Shown piece by piece: positions 3,988 through 53,172 of a stretch of DNA of 64,000 nt (position 1 is its first letter; each line of letters opens with the position of its first letter). Location: the NCBI GenBank assembly GCA_019326865.1, contig GCA_019326865.1_4101.1; one strand, 5' to 3'. A model generated the notes under the pieces. It ran no database searches. It had not been told where the DNA came from and worked only from the letters and a program-made list of their open reading frames with translations. This stretch comes from a phage. The position numbers were made by a program, and so were the translations under genes.

Positions 3988-4507
<520 letters not shown>

Positions 4508-4508
4508 A

Positions 4509-4688
4509 ATGACACACAAAGAATGGATGTCCAAACAACATAAAGAACATGATTTCTTTGGGAATGGTATTCGTCAGGTACACTATGACATCTTAAGAGA
4601 TGAAAATCTTTTCAGGTCATATGTTTTGGATACCAGAAAACCCTGGTTTATATGCGAACTGGCATTTAGAAAAACAATCAAACAATGA
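4509..4688 (+). CDS. small protein, MTHxEW family (59 aa)
   Basis: Begins MTHKEWM; ATG 1 nt after upstream stop. Confidence 0.4.
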   Translation: MTHKEWMSKQHKEHDFFGNGIRQVHYDILRDENLFRSYVLDTRKPWFICELAFRKTIKQ

Positions 4689-4782
4689 ATATAGAAAATT
4701 GCGTTAGTGTATCTAAAGCACTTGCATAAATGATTAATTCATTATATAATGATTATCATTGGTTCTAAATGAGGATAATATT

Positions 4783-5055
4783 ATGCATTTTGAAAAATTC
4801 AACACAAGTCGTGACACACGCATTGATGTTCTTTATGAAACACAAGACTCAATTAGTATTCGTACACGTAGTGGTGATGTATATCATGACTGCACTATTG
4901 GTTGGAAACAGGGAAGAACACGTAGTGCAGAATTCGATAATTATCGCTTCTTCCAAGATGACACCACAATCTGGCCTGAAGATGTAGAAGATATTGCAAT
5001 CGAAGATGAACATAAAGATGAATTTATCAAATTTAATCCCCAAACCGAATCATAA
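4783..5055 (+). CDS. hypothetical protein
   Basis: SD GAGGAT before ATG 4783; track ORF 4759..5055 trimmed. Confidence 0.45.
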   Translation: MHFEKFNTSRDTRIDVLYETQDSISIRTRSGDVYHDCTIGWKQGRTRSAEFDNYRFFQDDTTIWPEDVEDIAIEDEHKDEFIKFNPQTES

Positions 5056-5098
5056 ATAATGGGACAGCACAAAAAGATGTGATATAATTATTAGTACT

Positions 5099-5170
5099 GA
5101 GGGGCTAGTTTAACGGATAAAACAGATTCCTTCTAAGAATCCAATCGGAGTTCGATTCTCCGGCCCTTTA
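5099..5170 (+). tRNA. tRNA-Arg (anticodon TCT)
   Basis: Cloverleaf: D-stem GTTT/AAAC, anticodon stem GATTC/GAATC with loop CTTCTAA, T-arm CGGAG-TTCGATT-CTCCG; acceptor with two G-U pairs. Confidence 0.7.
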
Positions 5171-5184
5171 TAAAATATAATATT

Positions 5185-5727
<543 letters not shown>

Positions 5728-5761
5728 TACAATTATATTCCATTAATTAAAAGGGAAAACC

Positions 5762-5926
5762 ATGACCCATGAAGAATGGTTAAGTGAACTAAAGTTCAGA
5801 TACTCCGGCATAGGTAATTGGCGAAAATATCATTGGGAGATTATATCAGACCCAGCAGAATACGATAAACTTATAAATCATGAAGTGTATCCGTGGTTCT
5901 TTATTGAAATAATGGTACGAATATGA
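5762..5926 (+). CDS. small protein, MTHxEW family (54 aa)
   Basis: Begins MTHEEWLSELKFRY; SD AAAGGGAAAA upstream. Confidence 0.45.
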   Translation: MTHEEWLSELKFRYSGIGNWRKYHWEIISDPAEYDKLINHEVYPWFFIEIMVRI

Positions 5927-6083
5927 CGCATGAAGAATGGATGAATGATATTAATTTTAGATATGCAGGTATTGGTAAATGGCTAAAGTATCATTGGGAA
6001 TTCATTTCAAAGTTGCATCTGTATGATAAACTTATCAACGACCCAGAATATAAAAAGTACTTAATTGAACTAATGGTAAGAAT

Positions 6084-6087
<4 letters not shown>
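5923..6087 (+). CDS. small protein, MTHxEW family (54 aa)
   Basis: Begins MTHEEWMNDINFRY; ATGA overlap with upstream stop. Confidence 0.45.
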
Positions 6088-6248
<161 letters not shown>

Positions 6249-6261
6249 TTAAAAAAAAAGC

Positions 6262-6699
<438 letters not shown>

Positions 6700-6708
6700 G
6701 TATTCAAT

Positions 6709-6782
<74 letters not shown>

Positions 6783-6840
6783 AAATTTAATAGGAGATGA
6801 TATGTTTAACGATGAACATCCAGATTTCTAAAAAAAGTTC

Positions 6841-6869
6841 TTGACCAAATAATTCAGAACTGATATCAT
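6841..6869 (+). promoter_or_regulatory. sigma70-type promoter, family A (variant)
   Basis: TTGACC-N17-TATCAT, spacer AAATAATTCAGAACTGA. Confidence 0.45.
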
Positions 6870-6901
6870 GTTTGTATATCAACAACAGAGGGTATATCGA
6901 A

Positions 6902-7141
6902 ATGGGTAAATATTTTGTGAGTTATAGTTATAATGTATCACGAAAAATTCCACGTGGTGACGGAATGGGATGGTCTTATGATGCATATACTTTAAATGAG
7001 TCATGTATCATCGAATTAAAAGAAAAAGACCTTGACATTCTAAAAATCAAACAATATATTCTTGATGTTGAATTGGCACATCGTACTGATATCTATCCAG
7101 ATGTAAATAACATCAGCATCTTAGTACTAACCAAAGTATAA
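6902..7141 (+). CDS. hypothetical protein
   Basis: Track ORF 6872..7141 trimmed to ATG 6902 downstream of promoter. Confidence 0.4.
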   Translation: MGKYFVSYSYNVSRKIPRGDGMGWSYDAYTLNESCIIELKEKDLDILKIKQYILDVELAHRTDIYPDVNNISILVLTKV

Positions 7142-7153
7142 GATAAAAGCACT

Positions 7154-7443
<290 letters not shown>

Positions 7444-7444
7444 T

Positions 7445-7537
<93 letters not shown>

Positions 7538-7554
7538 TTCACATGATATAGGGA

Positions 7555-7816
<262 letters not shown>

Positions 7817-7824
7817 GAATTTAA

Positions 7825-8226
7825 ATGAAAAAGAATGACTTGATCAAAATGCTTCAAGAAATTGACGGCAATCCAGAGATTGTTATTTGGAATGGATACG
7901 TCGATGATTATATGAACATCGAAAAAGGCTTGACTAAAATCACTCTAGTCAAAGAAACCGAACAGTTTCTTCAGGGTGCATTAGAGCACGAATGGTGTGA
8001 ACGTAACAATACATTCGACATTCCAGAAGACCAACGAACCAAGATTGCAGAACGTGCTAAAGAACTGCATAAGAAACGCGAATACGATTTCCAGAACCCA
8101 TATGTCACTGAAGACGAATTCAATCGCTGGTACGGTAAAAAGAAATTGACAAAGTATGTCCTTTCACCTAAACTACGTGGTAAGACTTCACTTGGTGTAT
8201 TCAACGCCGCAGACTTAAACTACTAG
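7825..8226 (+). CDS. hypothetical protein
   Basis: 133-aa ORF, co-oriented. Confidence 0.5.
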   Translation: MKKNDLIKMLQEIDGNPEIVIWNGYVDDYMNIEKGLTKITLVKETEQFLQGALEHEWCERNNTFDIPEDQRTKIAERAKELHKKREYDFQNPYVTEDEFNRWYGKKKLTKYVLSPKLRGKTSLGVFNAADLNY

Positions 8227-8238
8227 CGGGTATTATAA

Positions 8239-8503
<265 letters not shown>

Positions 8504-8547
8504 GATTCCCGATTCAGTAGTTTTAAAGCTGACCCGTATGTGCCTAT

Positions 8548-8589
<42 letters not shown>

Positions 8590-8590
8590 G

Positions 8591-8647
<57 letters not shown>

Positions 8648-8649
8648 TT

Positions 8650-8730
<81 letters not shown>

Positions 8731-8731
8731 G

Positions 8732-8782
<51 letters not shown>

Positions 8783-8799
8783 TACAACCGACAATGACT

Positions 8800-8874
<75 letters not shown>

Positions 8875-8926
8875 TGCCAAACAGCTTGAAGTACTTTGTA
8901 GTGCTGCACCTATGCCGACACTTGGC

Positions 8927-9027
<101 letters not shown>

Positions 9028-9039
9028 TATCTTACTTCT

Positions 9040-9129
<90 letters not shown>

Positions 9130-30788: not shown

Positions 30789-30795
30789 TAGAAAT

Positions 30796-30822
30796 GGGGT
30801 TGACTTCGGTCGGCCTTTTTTT
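30796..30822 (+). terminator. rho-independent terminator (GGTTGACT-hairpin family)
   Basis: GGGGTTGACTTCGGTCGGCC + T7. Confidence 0.65.
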
Positions 30823-30867
30823 ATATAGTAAATATATGAAATAACAAAGATTCAGGGATTATATTTC

Positions 30868-32052
30868 ATGGCTAGTGGGATACGATTAACACAAGAAGAA
30901 GCTGAAAAATTAGTAGCGAATAGATGTTTAGAACAAAATTATACATATAAACCTTTCACTTATATTAACACTAAAACAATATTAGAACTTAAATGTGATA
31001 ACTTTGAACATGAAGAATGGAAATGTAAATTTAGTAAATTCATTTACAAAAGAACTGGGTGTCCAGAATGTAAAGGAAGAAATTCTTTAAAAGAAAAAAC
31101 AGCAAGAACTAAAGTTCATGAAATATGTGAATTAAAAGGATATACTTATGAACCATTTGATTTTAACGGTGCTATAGGAACAAAAATAATAATTCATTGT
31201 GGAGTTGACTCCCATAAACCACATGAAACTAATTATAATTCTTTAGTTAATAAGAAAAATGGATGTATTGAGTGTGGTGGAAAGTTAAAATTAACCCAAC
31301 AACAAGCAGAATTAAATGTAATTAACATATGTAATACTACTGGATATACTTATAAACCTTTTGAATATAAAAATAATAGAACTAAAATTACATTAAAATG
31401 TTGCAATCCAGACCATGATGAATTTAGTTTAAGTTATGATAAATTTGTATATCAAGGTAATGGGTGTGTAAAATGTGGAAATCAATCCACAGCTAGAAAA
31501 CTTTGTCTTTCACAAGATGAATCAATTAAAAGGCTTAATGAAATTTGTACATCTAAAGGATATACTTATAAACCATTTATATATAAAAATGTACATACAT
31601 TAATTACATTAAAATGTTCAGAATGTGAACATCCTGAATGGACAACTCGATATCAAAATATTGTTCAAAAGCAAAGAGGTTGTCCAAGTTGTAGTCGAGG
31701 TGGATATGACCCAAGTAAACCTGGTTATTTTTATATACATCGAGTTCTAGGTAATGGTAGGATATATTATAAATTTGGTATAACAAACAATTATATATAC
31801 AGATTTGAACAATATAATAAGAACTTATTTAGAACTGAAAAATATAAAACATATTACAGTACTGATGGTATTTTAATCAAAGAACTTGAATATTTTATTA
31901 AACATATGAGTGGCATAAAAAGAAAAGTTATTGATAAAATAAATTATTTGGACGGGTATACTGAAACAATCAATGAATCAGAATATGAAAAATTAATAAA
32001 AATAATTGAATCATATAATGTACAAGAACTTGATGTGAACAGTATTAAGTAG
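30868..32052 (+). CDS. GIY-YIG/T5orf172-like nuclease with four N-terminal Cys-containing repeats
   Basis: Four ~60-aa repeats each with YTYKPF and GCPEC/GCIECG/GCVKCG/GCPSC; C-terminal PGYFYIHRV...IYYKFGITNN...RFEQY. Confidence 0.5.
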   Translation: MASGIRLTQEEAEKLVANRCLEQNYTYKPFTYINTKTILELKCDNFEHEEWKCKFSKFIYKRTGCPECKGRNSLKEKTARTKVHEICELKGYTYEPFDFNGAIGTKIIIHCGVDSHKPHETNYNSLVNKKNGCIECGGKLKLTQQQAELNVINICNTTGYTYKPFEYKNNRTKITLKCCNPDHDEFSLSYDKFVYQGNGCVKCGNQSTARKLCLSQDESIKRLNEICTSKGYTYKPFIYKNVHTLITLKCSECEHPEWTTRYQNIVQKQRGCPSCSRGGYDPSKPGYFYIHRVLGNGRIYYKFGITNNYIYRFEQYNKNLFRTEKYKTYYSTDGILIKELEYFIKHMSGIKRKVIDKINYLDGYTETINESEYEKLIKIIESYNVQELDVNSIK

Positions 32053-32095
32053 TATAATAAATAATAATATATTATATGTTAAAGGAGGGCACACG

Positions 32096-33337
32096 ATGCC
32101 TAGTGATTATAATAATGGTGATATGAAGCACAGAAATGGTGCAATTGTTCAACATTCAAAACGCAAGTCGGAGTACCGCCCTGCTGGAAACTATCATAGT
32201 GGTAGAAAAATGAGTCGTAACCAAAGCACTGGTGCACAAGGTGTAGAAAATGCAAAGCCAGGTGAAGTAACAGATACTTCCAAAATGAATCAACATGAAA
32301 AATTAAAATACATGAATGCTTTGGGATTACTTAATGCTCATCAAAAAGAGCAACTAGCTGCAATGGATAAAGCACAAGAACGACCAGAAGCAGCAGAAGC
32401 CCCCGCACAATCAAAAGCGACTAACCCTGTCAAAGAACTGTCTGATAAGTTAGGTAAGATCTTTGCAAATAAACCCCAACTTATTCAAGGTATTGTCAAA
32501 GAATTGCAATCTGTACCTAAAGAAGAATTAAAAGTCAAAGCACAAGCTGTTCTGGATGCAATGAAAGGAAATACCAGTACTGAACCAACCGAAGTATTCA
32601 GTACTATTATGCGTGCACTGGAAGGTAAACAACAAGGTGAAGAACGTGGTGATGAAGTAAGTCTTGAACGTGTTCTTAAAACATTTGATAGTATTGGGAA
32701 AGAAGACCGTGTTAATGCACAACAGGTTAAAAATGTACTAGCAAAATTGGAAAACCGTCTAGAAGGTAAAGATGATAAGATTAAATTGGTATCCGATGCA
32801 GTTGAAAATGCACTTAAATCTTATGTACAAGGTGAAAAGAGTCGTTTTGTAACTGCTATGGATGCTGCATTCAATACTATGAAAAAGTACGAAGCGGATC
32901 ATGGAGAGAAGGTAACACGAGATGGTTATTTGATGCGTGATGATGAAGAAGGTGCAGTGGAACAGAATGATGTTCATTCTGACGAAGATATTGATGACAT
33001 GGAAGCAGAACTGTCACAGGACCGCCAAATGACTGAAAAATCTCACAATGAACTAAAGAAATTAATGCAGTGGGTTGCAGACGTAGGTGAAAAGGCGGGT
33101 GCTGACAAGAAGAGTATCAACCGAAACCTAAGTTGGATTAAAGATAAGGTTGGTAATAACGCTCGTAAACTACAAAAAGCATGGACTGATGTAGTGAATG
33201 GTGCAGTAGATATTGACGTTGAATCTGGTGAAGCATATGATTATGCATTGATTACACTTGATGATTCTTTTCGTGACTACGAAAAAGGAAACGTGACTCC
33301 TTGGGAAAAAGACATAATGAGCAAATACGGTAAATGA
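32096..33337 (+). CDS. hypothetical hydrophilic Lys/Glu-rich protein
   Basis: 413 aa; SD AAGGAGGG; EKLKYMNALGLLN motif shared with 30405 ORF; visibly higher GC than neighbours. Confidence 0.55.
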   Translation: MPSDYNNGDMKHRNGAIVQHSKRKSEYRPAGNYHSGRKMSRNQSTGAQGVENAKPGEVTDTSKMNQHEKLKYMNALGLLNAHQKEQLAAMDKAQERPEAAEAPAQSKATNPVKELSDKLGKIFANKPQLIQGIVKELQSVPKEELKVKAQAVLDAMKGNTSTEPTEVFSTIMRALEGKQQGEERGDEVSLERVLKTFDSIGKEDRVNAQQVKNVLAKLENRLEGKDDKIKLVSDAVENALKSYVQGEKSRFVTAMDAAFNTMKKYEADHGEKVTRDGYLMRDDEEGAVEQNDVHSDEDIDDMEAELSQDRQMTEKSHNELKKLMQWVADVGEKAGADKKSINRNLSWIKDKVGNNARKLQKAWTDVVNGAVDIDVESGEAYDYALITLDDSFRDYEKGNVTPWEKDIMSKYGK

Positions 33338-37901: not shown

Positions 37902-37919
37902 GAACGGAAGGATGTTGAA

Positions 37920-38402
37920 ATGAACTATTTAGATTTAATTAATACGTATGTCATCAGCCCATATCTTAACGATGAAAGTATCAAATGTGTAGTATCTGTT
38001 GATAATCATCCAAATGGTGCATTAGAACTATTCGGTGCAGGACAGATTAACAATCGTTGTGGGTATACTTTTGAGTACTTACCAGAAAGAGATGTATTTG
38101 GTTGTTATGACCACAAAATCAAAAAAGGTGCTATATGGGGTAATCACAAAGATATTGCACAATCTTCACTTTTCGAAGATCATAATGGATATATGTGGCG
38201 TTCTCTTGGTGCAGTCCTACTTGATATCGCCCGTAGATATAAAAAGCGTATAACTCTTACTTATACACATACAGTTGAATATAAAAATGAAGTACAAGTA
38301 GAAGATGAAGAATTTTTTAAAAGTATCCCGTACATTGAATTCAACTTCCAAAACGGGTATGCTATATATCCTGATGATTTTATTGGTGAAAAATATTTTT
38401 AA
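37920..38402 (+). CDS. hypothetical protein
   Basis: 160-aa ORF downstream of cassette. Confidence 0.55.
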   Translation: MNYLDLINTYVISPYLNDESIKCVVSVDNHPNGALELFGAGQINNRCGYTFEYLPERDVFGCYDHKIKKGAIWGNHKDIAQSSLFEDHNGYMWRSLGAVLLDIARRYKKRITLTYTHTVEYKNEVQVEDEEFFKSIPYIEFNFQNGYAIYPDDFIGEKYF

Positions 38403-38493
38403 AAAATATTTGAAAAGAAAAGAATAAGTGCTATAATTATTACATCAAGACAACAAACACTAACATGTAAACGCTACTAATTAGGAGACACAC

Positions 38494-38904
38494 ATGATTA
38501 ACAAACATTTCGCAGTTTCTAAAACAGTAACCATCGATAACGAATGGGAAATTACTATTCTTAATGATCCTGCTCGTGGGTTGCTTGCAGAGAATCTTGT
38601 ACAGAAATACATCGACTGTAAGTCTGAATTGATTATTCACGACCGTACCAAATTTCTTCTCATCAATGGCAAGAAGTGTAAAGTATTAGTATTCACGGAT
38701 AAAATGAGCCGTGCAGACATTATCACCAAATTGGTAAGTTCTTCACGTCACCGCCCAGGAGTTAACAAATCTATCGAAGAAGTTAAAGATATGAAGCCTG
38801 GTGATTTATTCATTATTGCGGGTTTTGATTCTAAAACAAGAGAAATGTACATTTCAGAAATGTACACTAATGCTGAAATGCGTAACAAATTCTTCTCTAA
38901 CTAA
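38494..38904 (+). CDS. hypothetical protein
   Basis: 136-aa ORF. Confidence 0.5.
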   Translation: MINKHFAVSKTVTIDNEWEITILNDPARGLLAENLVQKYIDCKSELIIHDRTKFLLINGKKCKVLVFTDKMSRADIITKLVSSSRHRPGVNKSIEEVKDMKPGDLFIIAGFDSKTREMYISEMYTNAEMRNKFFSN

Positions 38905-38935
38905 TCAACCTAATTATGTATTATACAAATCTATA

Positions 38936-40153
38936 ATGGATAAAAATATGATCTTCGAAACAGAAAAAACTTTACTTGAAACTTATACTTTAGAAAATCT
39001 TGTACAACTTAATCTGGCCCGTCCTGATATTCAACGAAACTGGCAATGGAAAAGTAATAATCAAAATAATCTTATAATTTCTATTCTAAAGAATTCACCA
39101 ATTGGACAATTTTTGGTATGGAATGAAACTTCTTCAAATACAATGTACATTACTGATGGACGCCATCGTTATACTGTAATTTCAAACTTCATTAATAATA
39201 AGTTCCCAGTAACAGTTAAAACCGAAAGTGGAACCAAAGATTATTATTATGGTTCTGACGATCCAATCGAAGAAGAAAACATTTCACTAAAACTTGGTGG
39301 TAAAAGTAAGACTTGGAATTTCTTATCAAAAGAAGAGCGTAATGCTTTTCGCAATAAAGAAGTATCAGTAACATTTGTTCATACAGATGATGCTGAGAAG
39401 ATTTCTGAAATGTTTATGGCTATCAACACTGCTTCATCTAATTTGTGTAAAGTAGACTTGCTGGTATGCAAGCACCACAAAAATGCATACATGAAACGTA
39501 TTGATAAACTATTTTCAATTGAGATTGAAAAAGATGACCAAATGGCAGTTCTAGTTAGCGATTTCTATCGTGCAATCGGACACTGTAATGTCAACGGTAA
39601 TTACGAGAAACATTTAGCTAAACTTAAAGCTAACCCAAAAGTTCAGAAGCGTGAATTTTTTGAGATGTATTTTATGGTACGAGCCTTCACCAAATTGTGT
39701 CGTGATGCTTTAAACGATACATTGAATTCATATCGTATGCCTAAGATGAATAAACAAATTGAAGATGCTATTATTAGTACTGAATCACTGAGTGAACAGC
39801 AAGCTAACGCCGATTTTGTTCAGTTCGTGAATGCAGTTCGTGAGATGAACCTTGTATCTCCAATAAAAGATTTACAAAAGTTTCAATTCATCCACGAAGA
39901 TATGAAGAATACCTTTAACAAGCGTCTTTTTTGTATCTTAATGGGATTATATTATGCTTACGGTACACGTTTACCATTGCATTTTCGTGATGTTTGGTGT
40001 GCCATTTATAATGAAATGTCAGAAAAAAGTACTGAACTACCAACAAACGGGACTGATAGTTCTTCTGCTATTGTAGCTGGTATCCAATTGATTGAACCGT
40101 ACTTTAGTTCAGCCTTTAATAATATTTCATTGAGTGCTCGCGTGGGAAAGTGA
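38936..40153 (+). CDS. DUF262 (ParB/Srx-like) domain protein
   Basis: N-terminal ...PDIQRNWQWK...LIISILKNSPIGQFLVW...YITDGRHRYTVI matches the DUF262 pattern (DGxxR); track start 38801 trimmed to ATG 38936. Confidence 0.55.
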   Translation: MDKNMIFETEKTLLETYTLENLVQLNLARPDIQRNWQWKSNNQNNLIISILKNSPIGQFLVWNETSSNTMYITDGRHRYTVISNFINNKFPVTVKTESGTKDYYYGSDDPIEEENISLKLGGKSKTWNFLSKEERNAFRNKEVSVTFVHTDDAEKISEMFMAINTASSNLCKVDLLVCKHHKNAYMKRIDKLFSIEIEKDDQMAVLVSDFYRAIGHCNVNGNYEKHLAKLKANPKVQKREFFEMYFMVRAFTKLCRDALNDTLNSYRMPKMNKQIEDAIISTESLSEQQANADFVQFVNAVREMNLVSPIKDLQKFQFIHEDMKNTFNKRLFCILMGLYYAYGTRLPLHFRDVWCAIYNEMSEKSTELPTNGTDSSSAIVAGIQLIEPYFSSAFNNISLSARVGK

Positions 40154-40362
40154 AAAATCGTGGAATACTAAATATTTCACAAAAACAATATATTTTGAAA
40201 AAATATCCCGTTTGTTATCTTTGTAAACAATTTATATTAGATACAGATAAACCACACTTTGATCATGTACAGTCATTGAAAAATGGTGGTAGTAATGACC
40301 TAGAAAATATTAGACCAACGCACCCCATTTGTAATTTACGCAAAGGTGCTAAAAGTATGTAG
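40150..40362 (+). CDS. HNH endonuclease (small, overlapping upstream gene)
   Basis: CYLCKQ...HFDHVQSLKNGGSNDLENIRPTHPICNLRKG; GTG start overlaps upstream stop. Confidence 0.65.
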   Translation: MKNRGILNISQKQYILKKYPVCYLCKQFILDTDKPHFDHVQSLKNGGSNDLENIRPTHPICNLRKGAKSM

Positions 40363-40411
40363 AATAAAGACTCCCATTGACTGGGAGTCTTGTTATATTA
40401 AAAGGATTTAT

Positions 40412-41248
40412 ATGAGTATTAAAAATAAATTAGATCAGTATTATACAAAACCAGAGTATGCTGTAGATTGTTATACTAAATCATTAGAATTAATTTCTGA
40501 ACGTATGGATATTAGTTCATCGTATTTTATGGAACCATGTGTCGGTACTGGTTCATTTTATCTACAATTTCCTGAAGAACGTCGTTTTGGTTGTGATATC
40601 GAACCAGTACATCTTGATGAAAATGTTATACATTCTGATTTTTTGCTTGAGTTCGGGATTAATGCAAGAAGTAAAGGTGAGCCAATAATTGTTATAAGTA
40701 ATCCACCATTTGGTAAGATTTCTTCTTTGGCTATCAAATTCTTTAATAAATGTGCATCTATGCCTGAAGTGAAATATATTTGTTTTATTGTACCTAAGAC
40801 ATTCCGTAAAGTTGCAACACAGAATAAACTAAACGAGATGTTCCATCTTGTTCTTGATGAAGATTCACCACATGATGCTTTTATTCTGCATGGCGAACCG
40901 CATCATGTACCATGTGTATTTCAGATATGGGAGCGTAGAGATGAAGTTCGTGAACAACACGAAATTAAAAATAAATCAAACTACTTCCAGTTTTGTACTA
41001 AGGATGAAGCGGATATTTACATTAAGCGTGTAGGAACTAAAGCTGGTGAGTATGCTGCACCTGGTAAAGAACACAAAGATGCAAGTATGTACTACATTAA
41101 AACTGATTATGTTGATGAAATTATTAGAATTTTGCAAAGTGAAGACTACATTGACGAGATTAAACGTATACGCAAAACCACCGCTGGTGTATTCTGTGTA
41201 TCTAAATCTGAACTTGTACTGAACATTGAAAAACGTTTGAATTTTTAA
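40412..41248 (+). CDS. gamma-class amino (N6-adenine or N4-cytosine) DNA methyltransferase
   Basis: Motif order X-I-IV: DQYYTKPE, EPCVGTGSF, ISNPPFG; track start 40346 trimmed to ATG 40412 after hairpin. Confidence 0.7.
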   Translation: MSIKNKLDQYYTKPEYAVDCYTKSLELISERMDISSSYFMEPCVGTGSFYLQFPEERRFGCDIEPVHLDENVIHSDFLLEFGINARSKGEPIIVISNPPFGKISSLAIKFFNKCASMPEVKYICFIVPKTFRKVATQNKLNEMFHLVLDEDSPHDAFILHGEPHHVPCVFQIWERRDEVREQHEIKNKSNYFQFCTKDEADIYIKRVGTKAGEYAAPGKEHKDASMYYIKTDYVDEIIRILQSEDYIDEIKRIRKTTAGVFCVSKSELVLNIEKRLNF

Positions 41249-41315: not shown

Positions 41316-41831
41316 ATGACACGCATTAACTTAGTACACGTTAAAGAACTTGCAGACCAACATCTGATGGCTGAATATCGTGAACTACCACGTGTATTTG
41401 GTGCTGTACAAAAACACGTTCAAGCACGTAAGCGTGTACGTGATTTCAAAATTAACAGTACTTATCTGTTAGGTTCAGGTCATGTGACATTCTTTTACGA
41501 CAAGTTGCTGTACTTACAGAAGCGTCATATCGATATTGTCAACGAATGTTTGCGTCGTGGTATGAAGATTCAAAATACTGAAGTAAACGACATTAGCAGC
41601 TTCCCTGCTGAGTTTTGTAATGACTATGTACCATCGGAGTCAGAGATTGAAATGTCTCGTAAGCGTTTGATTGAGAAGCTTCAGATGAAGCCTACGTGGT
41701 ATAAGTTTACTGATGTTGAATGTCCACAGTACGTTACAGATATGCTGAACGTAAGTAGTAAGTTCGAATATAGTACGGCTATGTTAGACGAAATTGAAGA
41801 ACAAATCAAAGATGAAATGAATAATTATTAA
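41316..41831 (+). CDS. denV: pyrimidine-dimer DNA glycosylase (T4 endonuclease V homolog)
   Basis: [35 protein letters not shown]...RVRDFKI...[10 protein letters not shown] closely matches T4 DenV as recalled; ~35-aa C-terminal extension. Confidence 0.9.
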
Positions 41832-46916: not shown

Positions 46917-46952
46917 GCCAGTACGAGAGCACTGGCTTTAATATTATTTTTT
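46917..46952. terminator. bidirectional terminator between convergent genes
   Basis: Hairpin GCCAGT-ACGAGAGC-ACTGGC flanked by A-run and T-run. Confidence 0.55.
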
Positions 46953-48089
46953 CCAAGGAAGTAACGAAGTTGGAATCTTGATAGGTATATTTGATGCAAC
47001 AACATCAGGAAAATTTGCATCTCCACAAACATACAAATTATCGATTTCGTCTATCAATAATGTATAGTTGTAACTTCTACAAAAACCACTTAAGACTCTT
47101 CCCTCTAATGCAGATAAATTCATTTCAGTGAATTGAGTGATATATGTTTCATTTGAACCAACACCACATTGACCATTAGCATTTATACCACAAGTAAGCA
47201 ATTTATTATTGTTTTGAATTACACATGATGGTCCAGCAAGGTTCGTACCTAGTTCACCTACAACATTAACTTCACCTTTTAATGATAAATTTGGGATCAC
47301 TGTACTCATTGGGACTCGAGATGTATTTCCGACACCTGCTTGCCCTGAGCCATTAGTGGATGCTACTTTAACAGTACCGTCATTAAGAAAAATATAAGAT
47401 GTTTCGATTGTATTAACTGCTTGAGTAGCTGATGTTATTGACGTATCCTGTTTGAATTTAAGTACATTTGTCGTTGTTGAACCAGAGATAAATGTAGCAC
47501 CTGCGTACCAATATGTTCCATCCTGGAGTACTAAACCAGTACTTCTAATTGAACACCCAGCACTTCGAACATTTTCTATATGACTATATGTAAAGGTTGA
47601 TACGATTGAAGATTCACCATTACCGAACACCCCACCAGTACCTGCACCACAGAAAAACCATTTACCGTTTTTCAAAAATACACGCATACAAGCAGAAATA
47701 ACCACACTATCAATATCACTTGCAGTTACACCAAAATCGGTAAATAAATGAGTTATATCAATCCAATTACCACCAGTATTTGATGGGAGATGTGGAATTA
47801 CAACTCTAGTCCCTGTGTACCAGATTGTATCATCATCTTTAATAACAAGCGTACCTTGAACACCACCCCAATACCTGGTTACATTAGTATTAACAAGTGT
47901 CCACTCATTAGATGATTCCGTTGAGCCATTACCACCTTGACCATATGATGATGAACCGCACCAGTATAAATTGCCATTTTTATTTAAATAAAATTTTGCA
48001 TCAGCCGAGCATTGTAATCTGTATTTGAATACGGTTTTTGGTGCTGGTGCAATATTTGCATACTTAATCATTCTTCCAAAAGGTAACAT
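46944..48089 (-). CDS. RCC1-like beta-propeller repeat protein, paralog 1
   Basis: N-terminus MLPFGRMIKYAN; blade-like motifs LYWCGSSSYGQGGNG, LLTCGINANGQCGVGSNE. Confidence 0.6.
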   Translation of the reverse strand: MLPFGRMIKYANIAPAPKTVFKYRLQCSADAKFYLNKNGNLYWCGSSSYGQGGNGSTESSNEWTLVNTNVTRYWGGVQGTLVIKDDDTIWYTGTRVVIPHLPSNTGGNWIDITHLFTDFGVTASDIDSVVISACMRVFLKNGKWFFCGAGTGGVFGNGESSIVSTFTYSHIENVRSAGCSIRSTGLVLQDGTYWYAGATFISGSTTTNVLKFKQDTSITSATQAVNTIETSYIFLNDGTVKVASTNGSGQAGVGNTSRVPMSTVIPNLSLKGEVNVVGELGTNLAGPSCVIQNNNKLLTCGINANGQCGVGSNETYITQFTEMNLSALEGRVLSGFCRSYNYTLLIDEIDNLYVCGDANFPDVVASNIPIKIPTSLLPWKK

Positions 48090-48162
48090 AATTTCTCTCC
48101 TTCATTCATTATACTGTATTTAACCCAATTAAGAAAAGCCAGTATCAAGTACTGGTATTTTA

Positions 48163-49512
48163 TTATTGTAATGGAATTTCAGTGAGTGTTTTATATGTAC
48201 TTCCGTTATACACCCCTCTCCAATATACTTTACCATCAGTACTAACCACTAATAATCCATATGTTGTAAACCCAAGAGTACCACCAACATACATAGCATC
48301 TTTGATTCTAATACCAATGTCTTCATATGTAAATGACGCGACTGCACCCGCTTGCCATGAAGGACTAGCGTAGTAATCACTATAAACACCATGTGCTTTA
48401 TATATTGATGTTGTTCCTGGTTCAAAAATTACAGTTCCACAGTAGTTCATTCGTATTTTAGTACTGGATGAAGTTGGTACATTTATACCTACGTCATCTT
48501 TTATCCCTGTGGTTAGGACGTTAAAACCACCCGCCACACGGTTGACGTCATTCGCACCGATTAAATACATACCAACGTTGTAGCCCATATAAAACACACT
48601 AGAGCTTCCATTCCAGAAAGAAAAACCACCACCATTCCCACAGCGATATAGTTGTGAATTTGAGCAGTACATCATACCTTCGTTTGTCGCATCAAATTCA
48701 TCTGCTTTTCCTATTGTAGCTACTGTAGTCCAAGTTTTAATTACTTGGTTTGTACTAGCTGGTGTTTGTATACCATATCGTATATTATACCCTTTACCGA
48801 CTATTGTACCATCTTCTAATTTGGCATAAAGTACAGGTCTATTACCAACAAAATACATATTATTGTGTGACATGTCTATTGTGCATCTTAATGAAACTAC
48901 TTTTTGTTTCAATTGATTATCTTTAGTAAAAGAAGTAAAGTAGTAATCTGATGTTGAGTTGTTTATTAAACCTTGTATTGACAACCCCATATACCAGATT
49001 TCTCCATTACTGTTCAATGCTGCCAAAATACAACTATATTTTGAAGTATATGCTGGGGTTACTGATGTTGCTGGTCCTTTATCATATCCACCACAGAATA
49101 CCATCTCCACAACTTCACCCACGTTAGCAAAATAAGAAGATACATTGATAAAACCATTTGTTATAAAAGGTGCTGTATTTATACTTGAATGTGTGAATAT
49201 CCCATTTGCATATACACCACAAAAATGATATGAACCATCATTATCTTGGACTATTATTCCATTTGATAGTAACCAAAAATTGTTTACATTTTTTCTTACT
49301 AATTCGATTCCTGCCCCATTAGTTGGCGTTATACCAAAAGAAACATATTTTGTTTGACCAATTCCATATAAATTTCCATTTGATGCTAATATTGCACCAA
49401 ACCAATTACCACCACCATTCTTGTTATGACCCATACCTATAGAATCAAATTTCTTAACAGTAGGAGCTTGTACTTTGTTCCCATAATTCACCATTCTTCC
49501 AAAAGGTAACAT
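48163..49512 (-). CDS. RCC1-like beta-propeller repeat protein, paralog 2
   Basis: N-terminus MLPFGRMVNYGN; G/S/T/N-rich repeats. Confidence 0.55.
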   Translation of the reverse strand: MLPFGRMVNYGNKVQAPTVKKFDSIGMGHNKNGGGNWFGAILASNGNLYGIGQTKYVSFGITPTNGAGIELVRKNVNNFWLLSNGIIVQDNDGSYHFCGVYANGIFTHSSINTAPFITNGFINVSSYFANVGEVVEMVFCGGYDKGPATSVTPAYTSKYSCILAALNSNGEIWYMGLSIQGLINNSTSDYYFTSFTKDNQLKQKVVSLRCTIDMSHNNMYFVGNRPVLYAKLEDGTIVGKGYNIRYGIQTPASTNQVIKTWTTVATIGKADEFDATNEGMMYCSNSQLYRCGNGGGFSFWNGSSSVFYMGYNVGMYLIGANDVNRVAGGFNVLTTGIKDDVGINVPTSSSTKIRMNYCGTVIFEPGTTSIYKAHGVYSDYYASPSWQAGAVASFTYEDIGIRIKDAMYVGGTLGFTTYGLLVVSTDGKVYWRGVYNGSTYKTLTEIPLQ

Positions 49513-49584
49513 ATTTCCCTCCTTTATTCATTATACTATATTTAATACTAAAAGAAAAAGCCAGTATCAAGTACTGGCATTATG

Positions 49585-50694
49585 TCATTTTGGTAAATTA
49601 ATTTTAGTAAAGGCTGCAACATCCTCGATTGCACCAGGAATTGCGTAATACGATCCAGTACTATATACATCTCCGTCTTTGGTTAATATTGATGTTAAAC
49701 CATCACTAAAAAGAACATCCCTAATCTCACTAACTTCAACGGGTAATTGTAAATTAGTAGCACTATATATTGCACCAGTTTGAGAATTGTTTAATCCCAA
49801 ACCACGGTTCGCCCCAACACCCTTCTGATATGTACTAGTAATTACCATTTGTGTAGCAGTATTTAAGGCAGGTGAATTCGTCATAAACAACGGTGAACTA
49901 TTAGGCAAAGTACTTGCAGGAACTGCACGAAATGTAGTTGTATCTGAACTAAGAAAGTTTGGCGTTTGACCACATACGAAATATGATGTACCATTATAGT
50001 AATTAAATGCATTACCACCAATGACTGCATCGATTACACCAGAGCTACGTAATCCCCACGTGTTAATTTGTGTTCGGTTCCCCGTGCCATGCTGACCCCT
50101 GTCATTCCACCCAGAACTATATAACTTATTATCTAATGTAATATACATACTGTCATTTGCATTCGTCATTACTTTACGCACATTAGTAGCACATTGAGTT
50201 AATGTGTAAATTGATGATGAACCAATACCTAAAGCACCACGATATCCATTAGCTCCTGCACCATAGAGTACTGAACTAGTGCTAAGTACAAATATTAAAC
50301 CATACGAACATACAATATTAGCAATTTCACTCACTGGTATAGCACTGGTAAACCAATTAGTTCTTTCAACTAATACTGTGCTGTAAGAAGTAGTTGTAGA
50401 CGATGTGAACCAATATGTTTCCCCTGATGTCCATATAGTATTATCATTTTTAATAATAACAAGTGCACGATCACCTACGAAAAAATTAGAAACATCTGCA
50501 CTTACTAATATCCATGAAGATACCGTGTTTTTATTACCATTTCCAGATTCACCACCTTGATTTCTACCTATGTAATATAAATCATGTGAATCAGTTAATA
50601 AGAATTGACCCTGTGTAGATGCACCAACTTTAATTATATTTTTAGGACCAGGTACAATATTCCCATAATCAAACATTCTTACAAAAGGTAACAT
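49585..50694 (-). CDS. RCC1-like beta-propeller repeat protein, paralog 3
   Basis: Start set to MLPFVRMFDYGN after SD GGAG; motifs YYIGRNQGGESGNG, YSSGWNDRGQHGTGN. Confidence 0.6.
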   Translation of the reverse strand: MLPFVRMFDYGNIVPGPKNIIKVGASTQGQFLLTDSHDLYYIGRNQGGESGNGNKNTVSSWILVSADVSNFFVGDRALVIIKNDNTIWTSGETYWFTSSTTTSYSTVLVERTNWFTSAIPVSEIANIVCSYGLIFVLSTSSVLYGAGANGYRGALGIGSSSIYTLTQCATNVRKVMTNANDSMYITLDNKLYSSGWNDRGQHGTGNRTQINTWGLRSSGVIDAVIGGNAFNYYNGTSYFVCGQTPNFLSSDTTTFRAVPASTLPNSSPLFMTNSPALNTATQMVITSTYQKGVGANRGLGLNNSQTGAIYSATNLQLPVEVSEIRDVLFSDGLTSILTKDGDVYSTGSYYAIPGAIEDVAAFTKINLPK

Positions 50695-50768
50695 AACTAA
50701 AATCTCCATATAATAATTATAATGTATTTACAAAAAAATACCAGTACGTATTTCAGTACTGGTATCAT

Positions 50769-51950
50769 TTATGGTAAAATGATAGATTGTAACGAACTCA
50801 TACCCAATGCTGGAACACTAGCCTGTGGTGCTGGAGAATTCAATTTTGGTGATGAAACCGCATATGACATTCCTGAACCCAAATCTGGATCAAAAACTAC
50901 AGCACAATAATTCCCACTATATATAAGTCCATTCTTGTATCCTTGTGCACTTTGAATGCATTTCGTGAACGTACCAATATCTGTCGTGGCATTTATTAAG
51001 TTCCTCCCACGATAACCGCAGGTGTATATGAAATTATCATCGCCTATGTACATACTAGAATCCCCAGAAGAACTACATAGATACGACATATAAGCACGCA
51101 TGTTTTTAGGAGCAACTGACAATGTACCTGCATAGAATTTATTATTCGAACCCGTAATATCACCATCACCCAATGCACCAAAACTTCCCCAGCCAGTACC
51201 GTAATATCTCTTATCACTCAAAAATATAATACAGTTGTTATTACACATCTTGATTTGATATATCAATGAAGGATCAACCCCAGGGAATGATTCAGTGAAT
51301 GTTAGAACAGCCGGATCAGTACTAGCATTACATTGATGATATGTATTAGTACCAGCGGACAAGATTGTTCCATTAGCTAACAGAATTCTCGCAGTACCAG
51401 TACCAGCAGTACAAGCAACTGCACTTCCTGCACTTCCGGTGTATATTTGTCTGAAAGTAAAGAAACCAACAGTTTTACTTCCCTGCCCACTCCAACCAGT
51501 ATTATCAACTCCACACGCCCATACTGAACCATCTTGCATGATCATCATTACACCAAAGCGTTCTATTGAAATATAAACAATCTTCGTTGTATCAACTGCA
51601 CTAAATCTAGAAGTTATATCAGTCCATACCTTAACACTTACCGCCGTCGCACTGGAAGTAGGATCTTCACCAGCTATCATTATCCTCCCATTGTTAGTAA
51701 GATACATTGTCTGACTATAACCAGTACTACAAAACTTAACACTATCAGTCTCTGGAACTTTTAACCACTCGTTGTAACGTGTTACGTTAGTGTTATTACC
51801 TAACTGATAATAGTTATTCATCCCAGATACATATAACACACCATCCTTTATTAAACTATAAGTCGCACTATAGTCACTACAGGTATAACGTGTACCCACA
51901 GGTCGCTCAACGACGTTCCCGTACTTAACCATTCTCCCAAAAGGTAACAT
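50769..51950 (-). CDS. RCC1-like beta-propeller repeat protein, paralog 4
   Basis: N-terminus MLPFGRMVKYGN; YVSGMNNYYQLGNNTN. Confidence 0.6.
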   Translation of the reverse strand: MLPFGRMVKYGNVVERPVGTRYTCSDYSATYSLIKDGVLYVSGMNNYYQLGNNTNVTRYNEWLKVPETDSVKFCSTGYSQTMYLTNNGRIMIAGEDPTSSATAVSVKVWTDITSRFSAVDTTKIVYISIERFGVMMIMQDGSVWACGVDNTGWSGQGSKTVGFFTFRQIYTGSAGSAVACTAGTGTARILLANGTILSAGTNTYHQCNASTDPAVLTFTESFPGVDPSLIYQIKMCNNNCIIFLSDKRYYGTGWGSFGALGDGDITGSNNKFYAGTLSVAPKNMRAYMSYLCSSSGDSSMYIGDDNFIYTCGYRGRNLINATTDIGTFTKCIQSAQGYKNGLIYSGNYCAVVFDPDLGSGMSYAVSSPKLNSPAPQASVPALGMSSLQSIILP

Positions 51951-52023
51951 ATTTTCCTCCTTTATTCATTATACTATATTTAATACAAAAAGAAATGCCA
52001 GTATCAAGTACTGGCATATTAAT

Positions 52024-53172
52024 TCATTGTATAAATGACATATCTACTTCTGTATAATTAAGAACGTTCTGTCCAGAAATACCACCCATTACTACTATTG
52101 CAAGGCCACAATAATATAATTTTCCAGTATCCGTAAGTATAAGTGATCCAGATGGACTGCGTACCAAATCACACGAACTATTAAAAGAAGTATAAGAAGG
52201 AGTATAGGAGTACTGATTATTATTATTACCAACACCTAATTGCCCAAACCCATTCGATCCAGAAGCATATAGAACTTCATCTGCTTTGACAATATGTGAT
52301 GCCATGTTACCAACACAAGTATATAGAGTATAAACTCCTGAACTCAATAATGTCGGAGTTTTATATTGTATATCTGTAGATGTAGAAGTACCACCTGTAC
52401 CAAATTCGTTCCCATATTGTGCACCGAACTGTTTACCACAAGCGTACAAATTATTATCCGATTTGATAAAAAATGTACTCTGATAACTTACATTAAAATC
52501 TATAACATCCGAAGAAATCATCGTCACCCCAGTAATAGAAGTTTGATTACCCGTGCCCAACTGGTAGTAATAGTTAAAACCACAACCCCATAAAGTATTA
52601 TCTTCTCGCAAATAAATGTTACCAACTGCCTTTTTAACCGAAGTTATAGTATCTACTCTTTTGAATGTGTTAAAAGAATTAATGTTTGTACCATCACCAA
52701 ATGATGATATGTTCGATATATTGTTAACTCCACAACAATACAATGTACCATCTTTTGTTATCAAATTCACCTTCATATCATAAAAACTACTCATGTATTT
52801 TATATCAGAAACATTAACACCACTTGATGTTATCCACGTAGTACAGTCCGTCCACAAAGTTTTTCTATCAGTTACACCAGTGAATGCCTTCGTGTTACCA
52901 GTGATAAAAACTTTTCCAGTACCTTTCTCTTCATACAATTGACAATCACTACTGTTATCTTCCAATAGAACTCGTTTAACATTCTCCGCACAAAGAATAA
53001 ATTTACTCGATGCTACACCTGTACCAGTACCCCAATTCGTCGCAGAAGATGCATACAACTTATCAGTATAAGTATCATGAAGATACATAGAATCACTGGA
53101 ATATATTTTAAAACGCCCTTCTTTCTCAGGTATAATATTCCCGTACTTAACCATTCTCCCAAAAGGTAACAT
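52024..53172 (-). CDS. RCC1-like beta-propeller repeat protein, paralog 5
   Basis: N-terminus MLPFGRMVKYGN; LWGCGFNYYYQLGTGNQTS, YASGSNGFGQLGVGNN. Confidence 0.65.
   Translation of the reverse strand: MLPFGRMVKYGNIIPEKEGRFKIYSSDSMYLHDTYTDKLYASSATNWGTGTGVASSKFILCAENVKRVLLEDNSSDCQLYEEKGTGKVFITGNTKAFTGVTDRKTLWTDCTTWITSSGVNVSDIKYMSSFYDMKVNLITKDGTLYCCGVNNISNISSFGDGTNINSFNTFKRVDTITSVKKAVGNIYLREDNTLWGCGFNYYYQLGTGNQTSITGVTMISSDVIDFNVSYQSTFFIKSDNNLYACGKQFGAQYGNEFGTGGTSTSTDIQYKTPTLLSSGVYTLYTCVGNMASHIVKADEVLYASGSNGFGQLGVGNNNNQYSYTPSYTSFNSSCDLVRSPSGSLILTDTGKLYYCGLAIVVMGGISGQNVLNYTEVDMSFIQ

Follow-up and report, generated by a model that had tools for sequence, protein, structure and literature searches.

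A Zinc-Finger/T5orf172 Gene, Probably a Free-Standing Homing Endonuclease Gene, in a Recombinant Tract of an Asteriusvirus-Like Jumbo Coliphage

An Endonuclease-Like Gene between Two Virion Protein Genes

We analyzed a stretch of phage DNA of 64,000 nucleotides (GCA_019326865.1, contig GCA_019326865.1_4101.1; hereafter the window), which, as judged from its sequence, is of an Asteriusvirus-like jumbo coliphage belonging to the 121Q/PBECO4 group. The subject of this study is an open reading frame (ORF) on the plus strand at positions 30868..32052, which begins with ATG and encodes 394 amino acid residues followed by a stop codon. The initial annotation of the window regarded this ORF as nuclease-like, and both its extent and all of the motifs quoted then (GCPEC, GCIECG, GCVKCG, GCPSC, PGYFYIHRV, IYYKFGITNN, and RFEQY) were found in place. 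The ORF is situated between the gene of a small virion protein and that of a larger virion structural protein (32096..33337, plus strand). A terminator-like hairpin, GGGGTTGAC-TTCG-GTCGGCC followed by a T-run, lies behind the upstream gene (30796..30827, plus strand) and is succeeded by the 5' leader of the ORF (30828..30867, plus strand). We present below the evidence that the ORF is probably a free-standing homing endonuclease gene.

The predicted protein was assigned to phrog_681, annotated as 'endonuclease', in PHROGs (2.5e-66), while an NCBIfam search returned nothing useful. No paralogue of the gene was found elsewhere within the 64-kb window. The G+C content of the window reaches its minimum at this ORF (26% in 31001-32000, against approximately 33% overall). 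The ratio of nonsynonymous to synonymous substitution rates (dN/dS) of the whole gene was 0.25 against the orthologue in Klebsiella phage RaK2 and 0.17 against that in phage TH47, and 0.09-0.18 when the nuclease domain alone was considered. In the comparison with RaK2, the value was 0.18 for the nuclease domain and 0.29 for the repeats preceding it. The gene is under purifying selection, which is stronger in the nuclease domain than in the repeats.

NCBI contains a protein identical to that of the window (EHU8781046.1 and EJR1979126.1), labeled 'hypothetical protein [Escherichia coli]' and encoded on a contig of 348,506 bp, and near-identical copies were detected on eight further contigs (342-352 kb). 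As the identical protein is deposited under E. coli assemblies, these contigs are jumbo-phage genomes that were assembled inside the data of bacterial isolates and annotated as bacterial.

Four Zinc-Finger Repeats in the N-Terminal Part

The N-terminal 277-278 residues comprise four repeats of 66-72 residues, which we delimited at a recurring 'L(T/S)Q..' helix. The repeats share 27-46% identity in pairwise comparisons with blastp E-values of 2e-9 to 1e-19, which is far beyond chance. In the alignment of the repeats, the signature C-x4-H-x16-C-x2-C is invariant in all four, as are a Cys approximately 20 residues into the repeat, the motif Y-T-Y-x-P-F, a Thr, and the Gly preceding C-x2-C. Each repeat thus retains a complete set of four ligands (C/H/C/C) for a predicted zinc site. 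The number of the repeats and the C-x2-C pair in each of them had been recognized correctly in the initial annotation. On the other hand, the repeats are longer than the approximately 60 residues given there, the motif YTYKPF, described as common to all, occurs in three of them (repeat 2 has YTYEPF), and the upstream C-x4-H half of the metal site had been overlooked.

All of the repeats are encoded on the plus strand, and each was recognized by a Pfam model when searched in isolation. Repeat 1 (residues 1-72; 30868..31083), with C43-x4-H48 and C65-x2-C68 as the two halves of its putative metal site, matched DUF4379 with an E-value of 0.0019. Repeat 2 (residues 73-140; 31084..31287), which is the most divergent among the four, and repeat 3 (residues 141-212; 31288..31503) matched CapR (PF21817) with E-values of 7.7e-5 and 3.3e-7, respectively, and repeat 4 (residues 213-277/278; 31504..31698) matched both CapR (1.8e-7) and DUF4379 (3.7e-5). 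When the whole protein was subjected to the Pfam search, CapR was found in three stretches with an E-value of 1.3e-15 and 57.7 bits (gathering threshold of 24.2), and DUF4379 (PF14311), described as 'probable treble clef zinc finger,' with an E-value of 8.3e-10 and 39.2 bits (gathering threshold of 24.5). From these matches and the conserved ligands, we regard the repeats as predicted zinc fingers of the CapR/DUF4379 type.

A Divergent T5orf172 Domain at the C-Terminus

The initial annotation proposed that the C-terminal part resembles a GIY-YIG/T5orf172 domain and was ready to give up this proposal if the region matched neither profile. Taken to the letter, that is what we observed: the C-terminal part had no direct Pfam match, and the whole protein matched none of PF10544 (T5orf172), PF13455 (MUG113), and PF01541 (GIY-YIG) at E<=1. 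Nevertheless, relatives of the domain, a purpose-built profile, the predicted fold, and the conserved catalytic residues, each described below, upheld the proposal. Because of these four lines of evidence, we consider the domain (residues 278-394; 31699..32049, plus strand) to be a divergent T5orf172 member of the GIY-YIG superfamily, as predicted from sequence and model.

We prepared two alignments of the domain, A1 with 17 homologues and A2 with 63 homologues. When the homologous domains were scanned singly, T5orf172 was matched by 10 of the 17 in A1 and 32 of the 63 in A2, MUG113 by 7 and 31, respectively, and GIY-YIG by a few. The RaK2-type relative P0002, which is 65% identical, matched T5orf172 with an E-value of 0.003 over profile positions 1-97 of 101. 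Two further relatives, P0007 (36% identical over the whole protein) and P0015, exceeded the curated Pfam cut-offs, and the domain of the window matched these two with E-values of 2.9e-13 and 3e-6, respectively (Z=1e6). A profile built from six reference sequences, namely four Pfam-positive proteins, ICP1 Odn, and ICP1 ORF121, detected the domain with 51 bits and an E-value of 6e-12 over more than 100 residues.

The conserved residues of the domain are Y289, K302-F-G304-I305, R312, E341, and G363-x-T-E366. Among them, G304, I305, R312, E341, and E366 are invariant in A1 and A2, and Y289 (conserved in at least 90% of the 63 sequences), K302, and G363 are nearly invariant, together with G334. The AlphaFold2 model of the domain generated with A2 (predicted local distance difference test [pLDDT] of 95.3; predicted template modeling score of 0.88) displays a beta-beta-alpha-beta-alpha topology, which corresponds to the alpha/beta fold of GIY-YIG nucleases. 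Foldseek with this model detected no significant match in PDB (best E-value of 0.8) and 76 matches with E-values of 1e-3 or lower among the predicted viral structures in BFVD, some of which are named 'CapR homology domain-containing protein,' 'Homing endonuclease,' or 'GIY-YIG domain-containing protein.' A profile search of the PDB sequences returned weak and apparently spurious matches to Sin1/MAPKAP1 alone.

ICP1 Odn, the sole T5orf172 protein with proven nuclease activity, loses cleavage upon the E180A substitution and is then inactive in vitro as well as in vivo (PMC8263062). When Odn was aligned to the A2 profile, its E180 fell on E341, the invariant Glu of the helix following strand 3, and Y289 and R312 correspond in position to the first Tyr of the motif and the catalytic Arg, respectively. 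The domain is thus predicted to retain a catalytic Tyr in strand 1, a catalytic Arg in helix 1, and a catalytic Glu in the helix after strand 3. We had also considered E366 in the GYTE motif as the catalytic Glu and dropped this candidate, as the Odn alignment points to E341.

Presence and Absence of the Gene in Related Phages

Among the 38 phage records with a match to the locus, the four-repeat gene was found only in TH47 (98% identity) and RaK2 (two records of one phage; approximately 75%). At the same intergenic site, TH47 and RaK2 possess the gene and phage UB a two-repeat member of the family, whereas UE-S1, JP4, 121Q, and Turkey5 lack it. The gene is thus polymorphic in presence and absence among close relatives. 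UE-S1 is colinear with the window with approximately 95-97% identity over tens of kilobases, yet it lacks the gene: the insertion site spans 160 bp in UE-S1 and 1381 bp in the window. In the flanks, the identity to UE-S1 is 95-100% in most of the 100-bp bins and 84-92% in a few.

The family member of UB (L005 2368-3141), located at the site corresponding to 30838-32095 of the window, comprises 257 residues. Its 5' leader is near-identical to that in the window, while the identity at the protein level is only 39-50%, and the gene downstream of it carries a third N-terminal variant. The leader is near-identical in TH47 and RaK2 as well and is absent from the endonuclease-free relatives. The endonuclease-free alleles of UE-S1, JP4, 121Q, and Turkey5 have in common a conserved hairpin-TATACTATAAATATAG-ribosome-binding site segment and a distinct N-terminal coding sequence, and the region made up of these two is an evident candidate for harboring the target site. 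In a search for a T4-type late-promoter motif, CTATAAATA was found ahead of the structural gene in the endonuclease-free relatives and not in the window, so that we do not propose a promoter here.

One or two tiny hydrophobic ORFs occupy the same site in JP4 (L003 2290-2562), 121Q (L006 4290-4562), and Turkey5 (L007 1926-2296). They encode approximately 37 residues, appear membrane-like, and are flanked by two copies of the hairpin. From their occurrence at the same site, we regard the site as a general insertion hot spot.

A Sharply Bounded Recombinant Tract

We compared the window with UE-S1 and TH47 in a three-way scan, taking the positions at which the latter two differ as informative sites. 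The sites up to 30791 are of UE-S1 type (TH47-type at 2 of 61). Between 30796 and 32421, TH47-type states were found at all of the 10 sites in the leader and 128 of the 132 sites in the part belonging to the downstream gene. From 32440 on, the sites are again of UE-S1 type with two exceptions. Consistently, the binned identity of the window to TH47 is 96-100% from approximately 30800 to approximately 32400 and approximately 65-90% outside. These results delimit a donor-type recombinant tract at 30796..32421, with the left crossover bracketed by 30791-30796 and the right one by 32421-32440, at resolutions of approximately 5 and 20 bp, respectively. The left crossover lies inside the terminator hairpin 3' of the upstream gene, and the right one where a conserved NPVKELSD...IQGIVK block begins, after approximately 108 codons of the virion structural gene downstream.

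As the right crossover is within the structural gene, the downstream protein is a chimera. Both the protein alignment and the informative sites indicate that its 5' part of approximately 108 codons (32096..32421, plus strand) is of TH47/RaK2 type and has been co-converted, while the remainder is of UE-S1 type. The identity to RaK2 is 92% in 32100-32200, in contrast to approximately 40-50% in the other RaK2 flanks. The N-terminal coding sequence is therefore shared with RaK2, and we conclude that the gene moved across genera jointly with the beginning of the structural gene. The element is more alike between genomes than its flanks are, and the sequence adjacent to it has been co-converted, as is anticipated for a homing gene. 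We regard the tract as a co-conversion footprint, which may have originated from a break made by the nuclease. The examination of the flanks proposed in the initial annotation has thus provided strong evidence for mobility, with UE-S1-type flanks enclosing a TH47-type tract. The downstream virion protein, which had no Pfam match, comprises 413-417 residues in the window, UE-S1, and JP4 and 495-565 residues in 121Q, Turkey5, TH47, UB, and RaK2; the difference in length corresponds to a large internal acidic segment.

The hairpin in which the left crossover is located is one of seven copies in the window. The copies (GGTTGAC-TTCG-GTCAGCC followed by a T-run) are intergenic, at 19883, 28001, 30798, 33347, 37860, 41256, and 42540, always on the plus strand, and none is expected from shuffled sequences. 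The hairpin looks like a phage-specific terminator. Because it coincides with recombination boundaries, it could also serve as a portable recombination cassette. An insert of 3331 bp with four ORFs (37915-41245), which is absent from UE-S1, is bracketed by two copies of a segment of approximately 65 bp containing the hairpin, and UE-S1 possesses a single copy of the segment.

Family Distribution and Comparison with Known Systems

The profile of the domain detected 5119 proteins with E-values of 1e-3 or lower among 1.84 billion cluster representatives. This search had to be exhaustive, as the word-indexed search based on the C-terminal alignment contributed no more than five further proteins. 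Among the 167 proteins retrieved, 165 have the domain within 25 residues of the C-terminus, and zero to six G-x-C-x-x-C knuckles precede it. The relatives found by tblastn belong to 669 phage records, mainly of Vibrio, Escherichia, Klebsiella, Aeromonas, and Salmonella phages, and the search reached the 'putative homing endonuclease' genes of ICP1 (residues 141-384; E-value of 1e-10). Six matching places were detected in TH47 alone. The number of repeats among the relatives is two, three, or four.

CapR-like zinc fingers have been described in the N-terminal parts of the T5orf172 genes of ICP1 (Netter et al., 2021; PMC8096241). Of the 229 T5orf172 endonuclease genes that have been surveyed, 87% were accompanied by CapR, DUF723, or DUF4379/4397 fingers, which often form tandem repeats like beads on a string, with the number altered by recombination (Barth et al., 2023; PMC10448857). 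The initial annotation stated that the domain order is reversed relative to the classic Seg/I-TevI homing endonucleases. This is true of the comparison with I-TevI and T4 SegA-G, in which, furthermore, the second Tyr of the motif has not been replaced by Lys. However, the C-terminal position of the nuclease in the 165 of 167 proteins, together with the published architecture (PMC10448857, PMC8096241), implies that repeats followed by the nuclease are the norm for the T5orf172 homing endonucleases. Pfam scans of the protein found neither PF01541 nor NUMOD or helix-turn-helix modules. Considering the domain order and the lack of these profile matches, we rejected a placement among the Seg/I-TevI-type enzymes, to which the protein may be alike in the way it works without being a member of their family.

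The gene belongs to the class of zinc-finger/T5orf172 homing endonucleases described by Barth et al. It has the same architecture as gp165, gp174, ORF121, and others of ICP1 (PMC10448857; PMC8096241), likewise neighbors structural or otherwise essential genes and borders DNA that phages have exchanged, shares with them the variable number of repeats in relatives, and shows direct similarity in tblastn. There are differences as well. The nuclease domain escapes the T5orf172 and MUG113 models of Pfam, and the gene resides in a jumbo coliphage of the Asteriusvirus/Alcyoneusvirus type, while neither jumbo phages nor RaK2 and 121Q are mentioned in PMC10448857. The spacing of the metal ligands is C-x4-H...C-x2-C here and reported as CxxC...CxC in CapR, of which sequence-specific DNA binding was demonstrated by an electrophoretic mobility shift assay (PMC8096241).

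The orthologue of the gene is ORF274 of Klebsiella phage RaK2 (YP_007007429, 'endonuclease'; UniProt H6X481, 'CapR homology domain-containing protein'), which has been annotated as 'endonuclease' since the publication of the genome. It encodes four repeats and shares 65% identity at the amino acid level and approximately 75% at the nucleotide level. As in the window, the homologous virion structural gene follows immediately and begins with the same N-terminal coding sequence. RaK2 belongs to another genus, however, and its upstream flank is unrelated. ICP1 Odn (Gp88), an origin-directed nuclease, is a T5orf172 protein for which DNA cleavage has been demonstrated (PMC8263062), and its E180, Arg, and first Tyr correspond to E341, R312, and Y289, respectively. 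Odn differs in having a RepA_N DNA-binding domain and the replication origin of a satellite as its target, and is not a homing element.

Homing and Alternative Explanations

Putting the domain architecture, the polymorphism at a single site, and the bounded tract together, we consider it probable that the gene is a free-standing homing endonuclease gene of the zinc-finger/T5orf172 class. The four tandem fingers would act as beads on a string and jointly bind a long DNA site in the endonuclease-free allele, and the C-terminal GIY-YIG-fold domain would cut nearby with Y289, R312, E341, and one metal ion. In a cell co-infected by an endonuclease-free relative, the allele of the relative would be cut, likely in the region of the terminator, the promoter, or the first 300 bp or so of the structural gene; we place the target there because this segment is replaced in the endonuclease-carrying genomes. 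The break would then be repaired from the endonuclease-carrying genome, by which the gene and approximately 330 bp of the structural gene would be copied. The converted sequence, or the insertion itself, may shield the carrier from its own enzyme.

Several observations weigh against this interpretation. The C-terminal 117-118 residues matched none of PF10544, PF13455, and PF01541 even at E<=10. Instead of the second Tyr in the GIY-YIG motif, the family has a conserved Lys (K302 here), and no His or Tyr was identified in helix 1. The model of the full-length protein predicted by AlphaFold from the single sequence had a pLDDT of 39 and gave no usable model of the zinc-finger array. The cleavage site cannot be read from the sequence, and no T5orf172 endonuclease gene has been demonstrated by experiment to home, as stated in PMC10448857. 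Finally, the hairpin at the left crossover, which occurs seven times in the window, could favor ordinary recombination that involves no nuclease.

The last point leads to the possibility that the gene is a passenger of ordinary homologous recombination, in which phages infecting the same cell swapped the tract of 1.6 kb, with the hairpin and the NPVKELSD...IQGIVK block serving as the left and right sites of exchange, respectively. The 3.3-kb insert with a copy of this hairpin on each side and the unrelated tiny ORFs between two hairpins at the site in JP4, 121Q, and Turkey5 are in line with this scenario. However, the tract holds an intact nuclease gene under selection, of a family that is found repeatedly at the boundaries of exchange (PMC10448857). 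Between genera, from RaK2 to Asteriusvirus, the gene remains linked with the same 5' end of the structural gene, and the two-repeat member in UB is located at this very site behind the same leader. We therefore judge the passenger scenario to be quite unlikely. Alternatively, the protein may be kept as a nuclease for competition or defense, destroying a co-infecting jumbo phage, a satellite, or host DNA, and have spread through its benefit to the phage. Odn is a T5orf172 nuclease used in that manner (PMC8263062), marker exclusion and homing are mechanistically one act, and the window encodes other nucleases that vary among relatives, namely a GmrSD_N protein and an HNH endonuclease. Nevertheless, a single intergenic insertion site, relatives that are mostly endonuclease-free, and a co-converted neighbor are the trace of homing, and the protein possesses the standard CapR/DUF4379 array instead of a DNA-binding module of foreign or satellite-like character such as the RepA_N type in Odn. 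Retention of the gene for such a role appears unlikely.

It is also conceivable that the gene is a domesticated derivative, of which the zinc-finger array works mainly as a sequence-specific DNA-binding regulator, for instance of the adjacent virion gene, and the T5orf172 domain is dead or vestigial. Such a co-option is documented for CapR of PLE, which acts as a repressor on the capsid operon of ICP1 (PMC8096241). The gene in the window lies directly upstream of a virion structural gene and replaces the region upstream of it, and its nuclease domain is too divergent for a direct Pfam match. CapR, however, has no nuclease domain, whereas the domain here is complete and retains all of the residues invariant in the family, including the equivalent of the catalytic Glu of Odn. 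Stronger purifying selection on the nuclease domain than on the repeats (in the comparison with RaK2) and a recent horizontal transfer with a co-converted flank are not expected from a regulator either, and we regard the domestication scenario as very unlikely.

Other Features of the Window

Among the four ORFs in the 3331-bp insert, that at 38801..40153 encodes 450 residues with a GmrSD_N (DUF262) restriction-endonuclease N-terminal domain (E-value of 1.4e-17). The gene following the insert (41316..41831) encodes a DenV-like pyrimidine dimer glycosylase. A second endonuclease gene, which belongs to another family with NUMOD4 and HNH_3, was found at 5203-5727. It sits among seven tRNA genes in a tRNA cluster (4194-9119), the region of which is rearranged and shorter than in UE-S1. 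The cluster includes a tRNA-Ser gene at 7192-7283 with the anticodon ACT (detected by ARAGORN), which is unusual for bacteria and phages. On the minus strand, five consecutive ORFs of 374-449 residues occupy 46944-53172, accompanied by a marked reversal of GC skew, and their counterparts in UE-S1 are annotated as RCC1-like, 'regulator of chromosome condensation.'

Implications

The present study supports the interpretation put forward in the initial annotation, that is, Cys-containing repeats followed by a GIY-YIG/T5orf172-like domain, and the deposited protein termed 'hypothetical' can now be annotated. The T5orf172 and MUG113 models of Pfam overlook a sizeable subfamily, as represented by the 5119 proteins matched by the profile of the domain. 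The lineages with zinc-finger/T5orf172 genes at the edges of exchanged DNA now include the jumbo coliphages of Asteriusvirus and Alcyoneusvirus. The footprint in the window is unusually clean, in that both crossovers are resolved and the neighboring virion gene is chimeric.

The locus offers a tractable system in E. coli for the question of whether T5orf172 genes home. As the window is composed of a UE-S1-like backbone and a TH47-like tract of 1.6 kb, we tentatively put forward the idea, rather doubtful at present, that the locus provides a natural near-isogenic pair of donor and recipient together with a series of two, three, and four fingers, in which each finger may read a short sub-site and the array constitutes a modular code that can be re-combined. 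In this series, the two-repeat (UB) and four-repeat versions occur at this site, and the three-repeat versions are known from homologues in the databases alone. If the idea of the modular code is true, homing by a T5orf172 enzyme could be proven experimentally for the first time in this system, which would also open a route to read or re-program the specificity of the enzyme.

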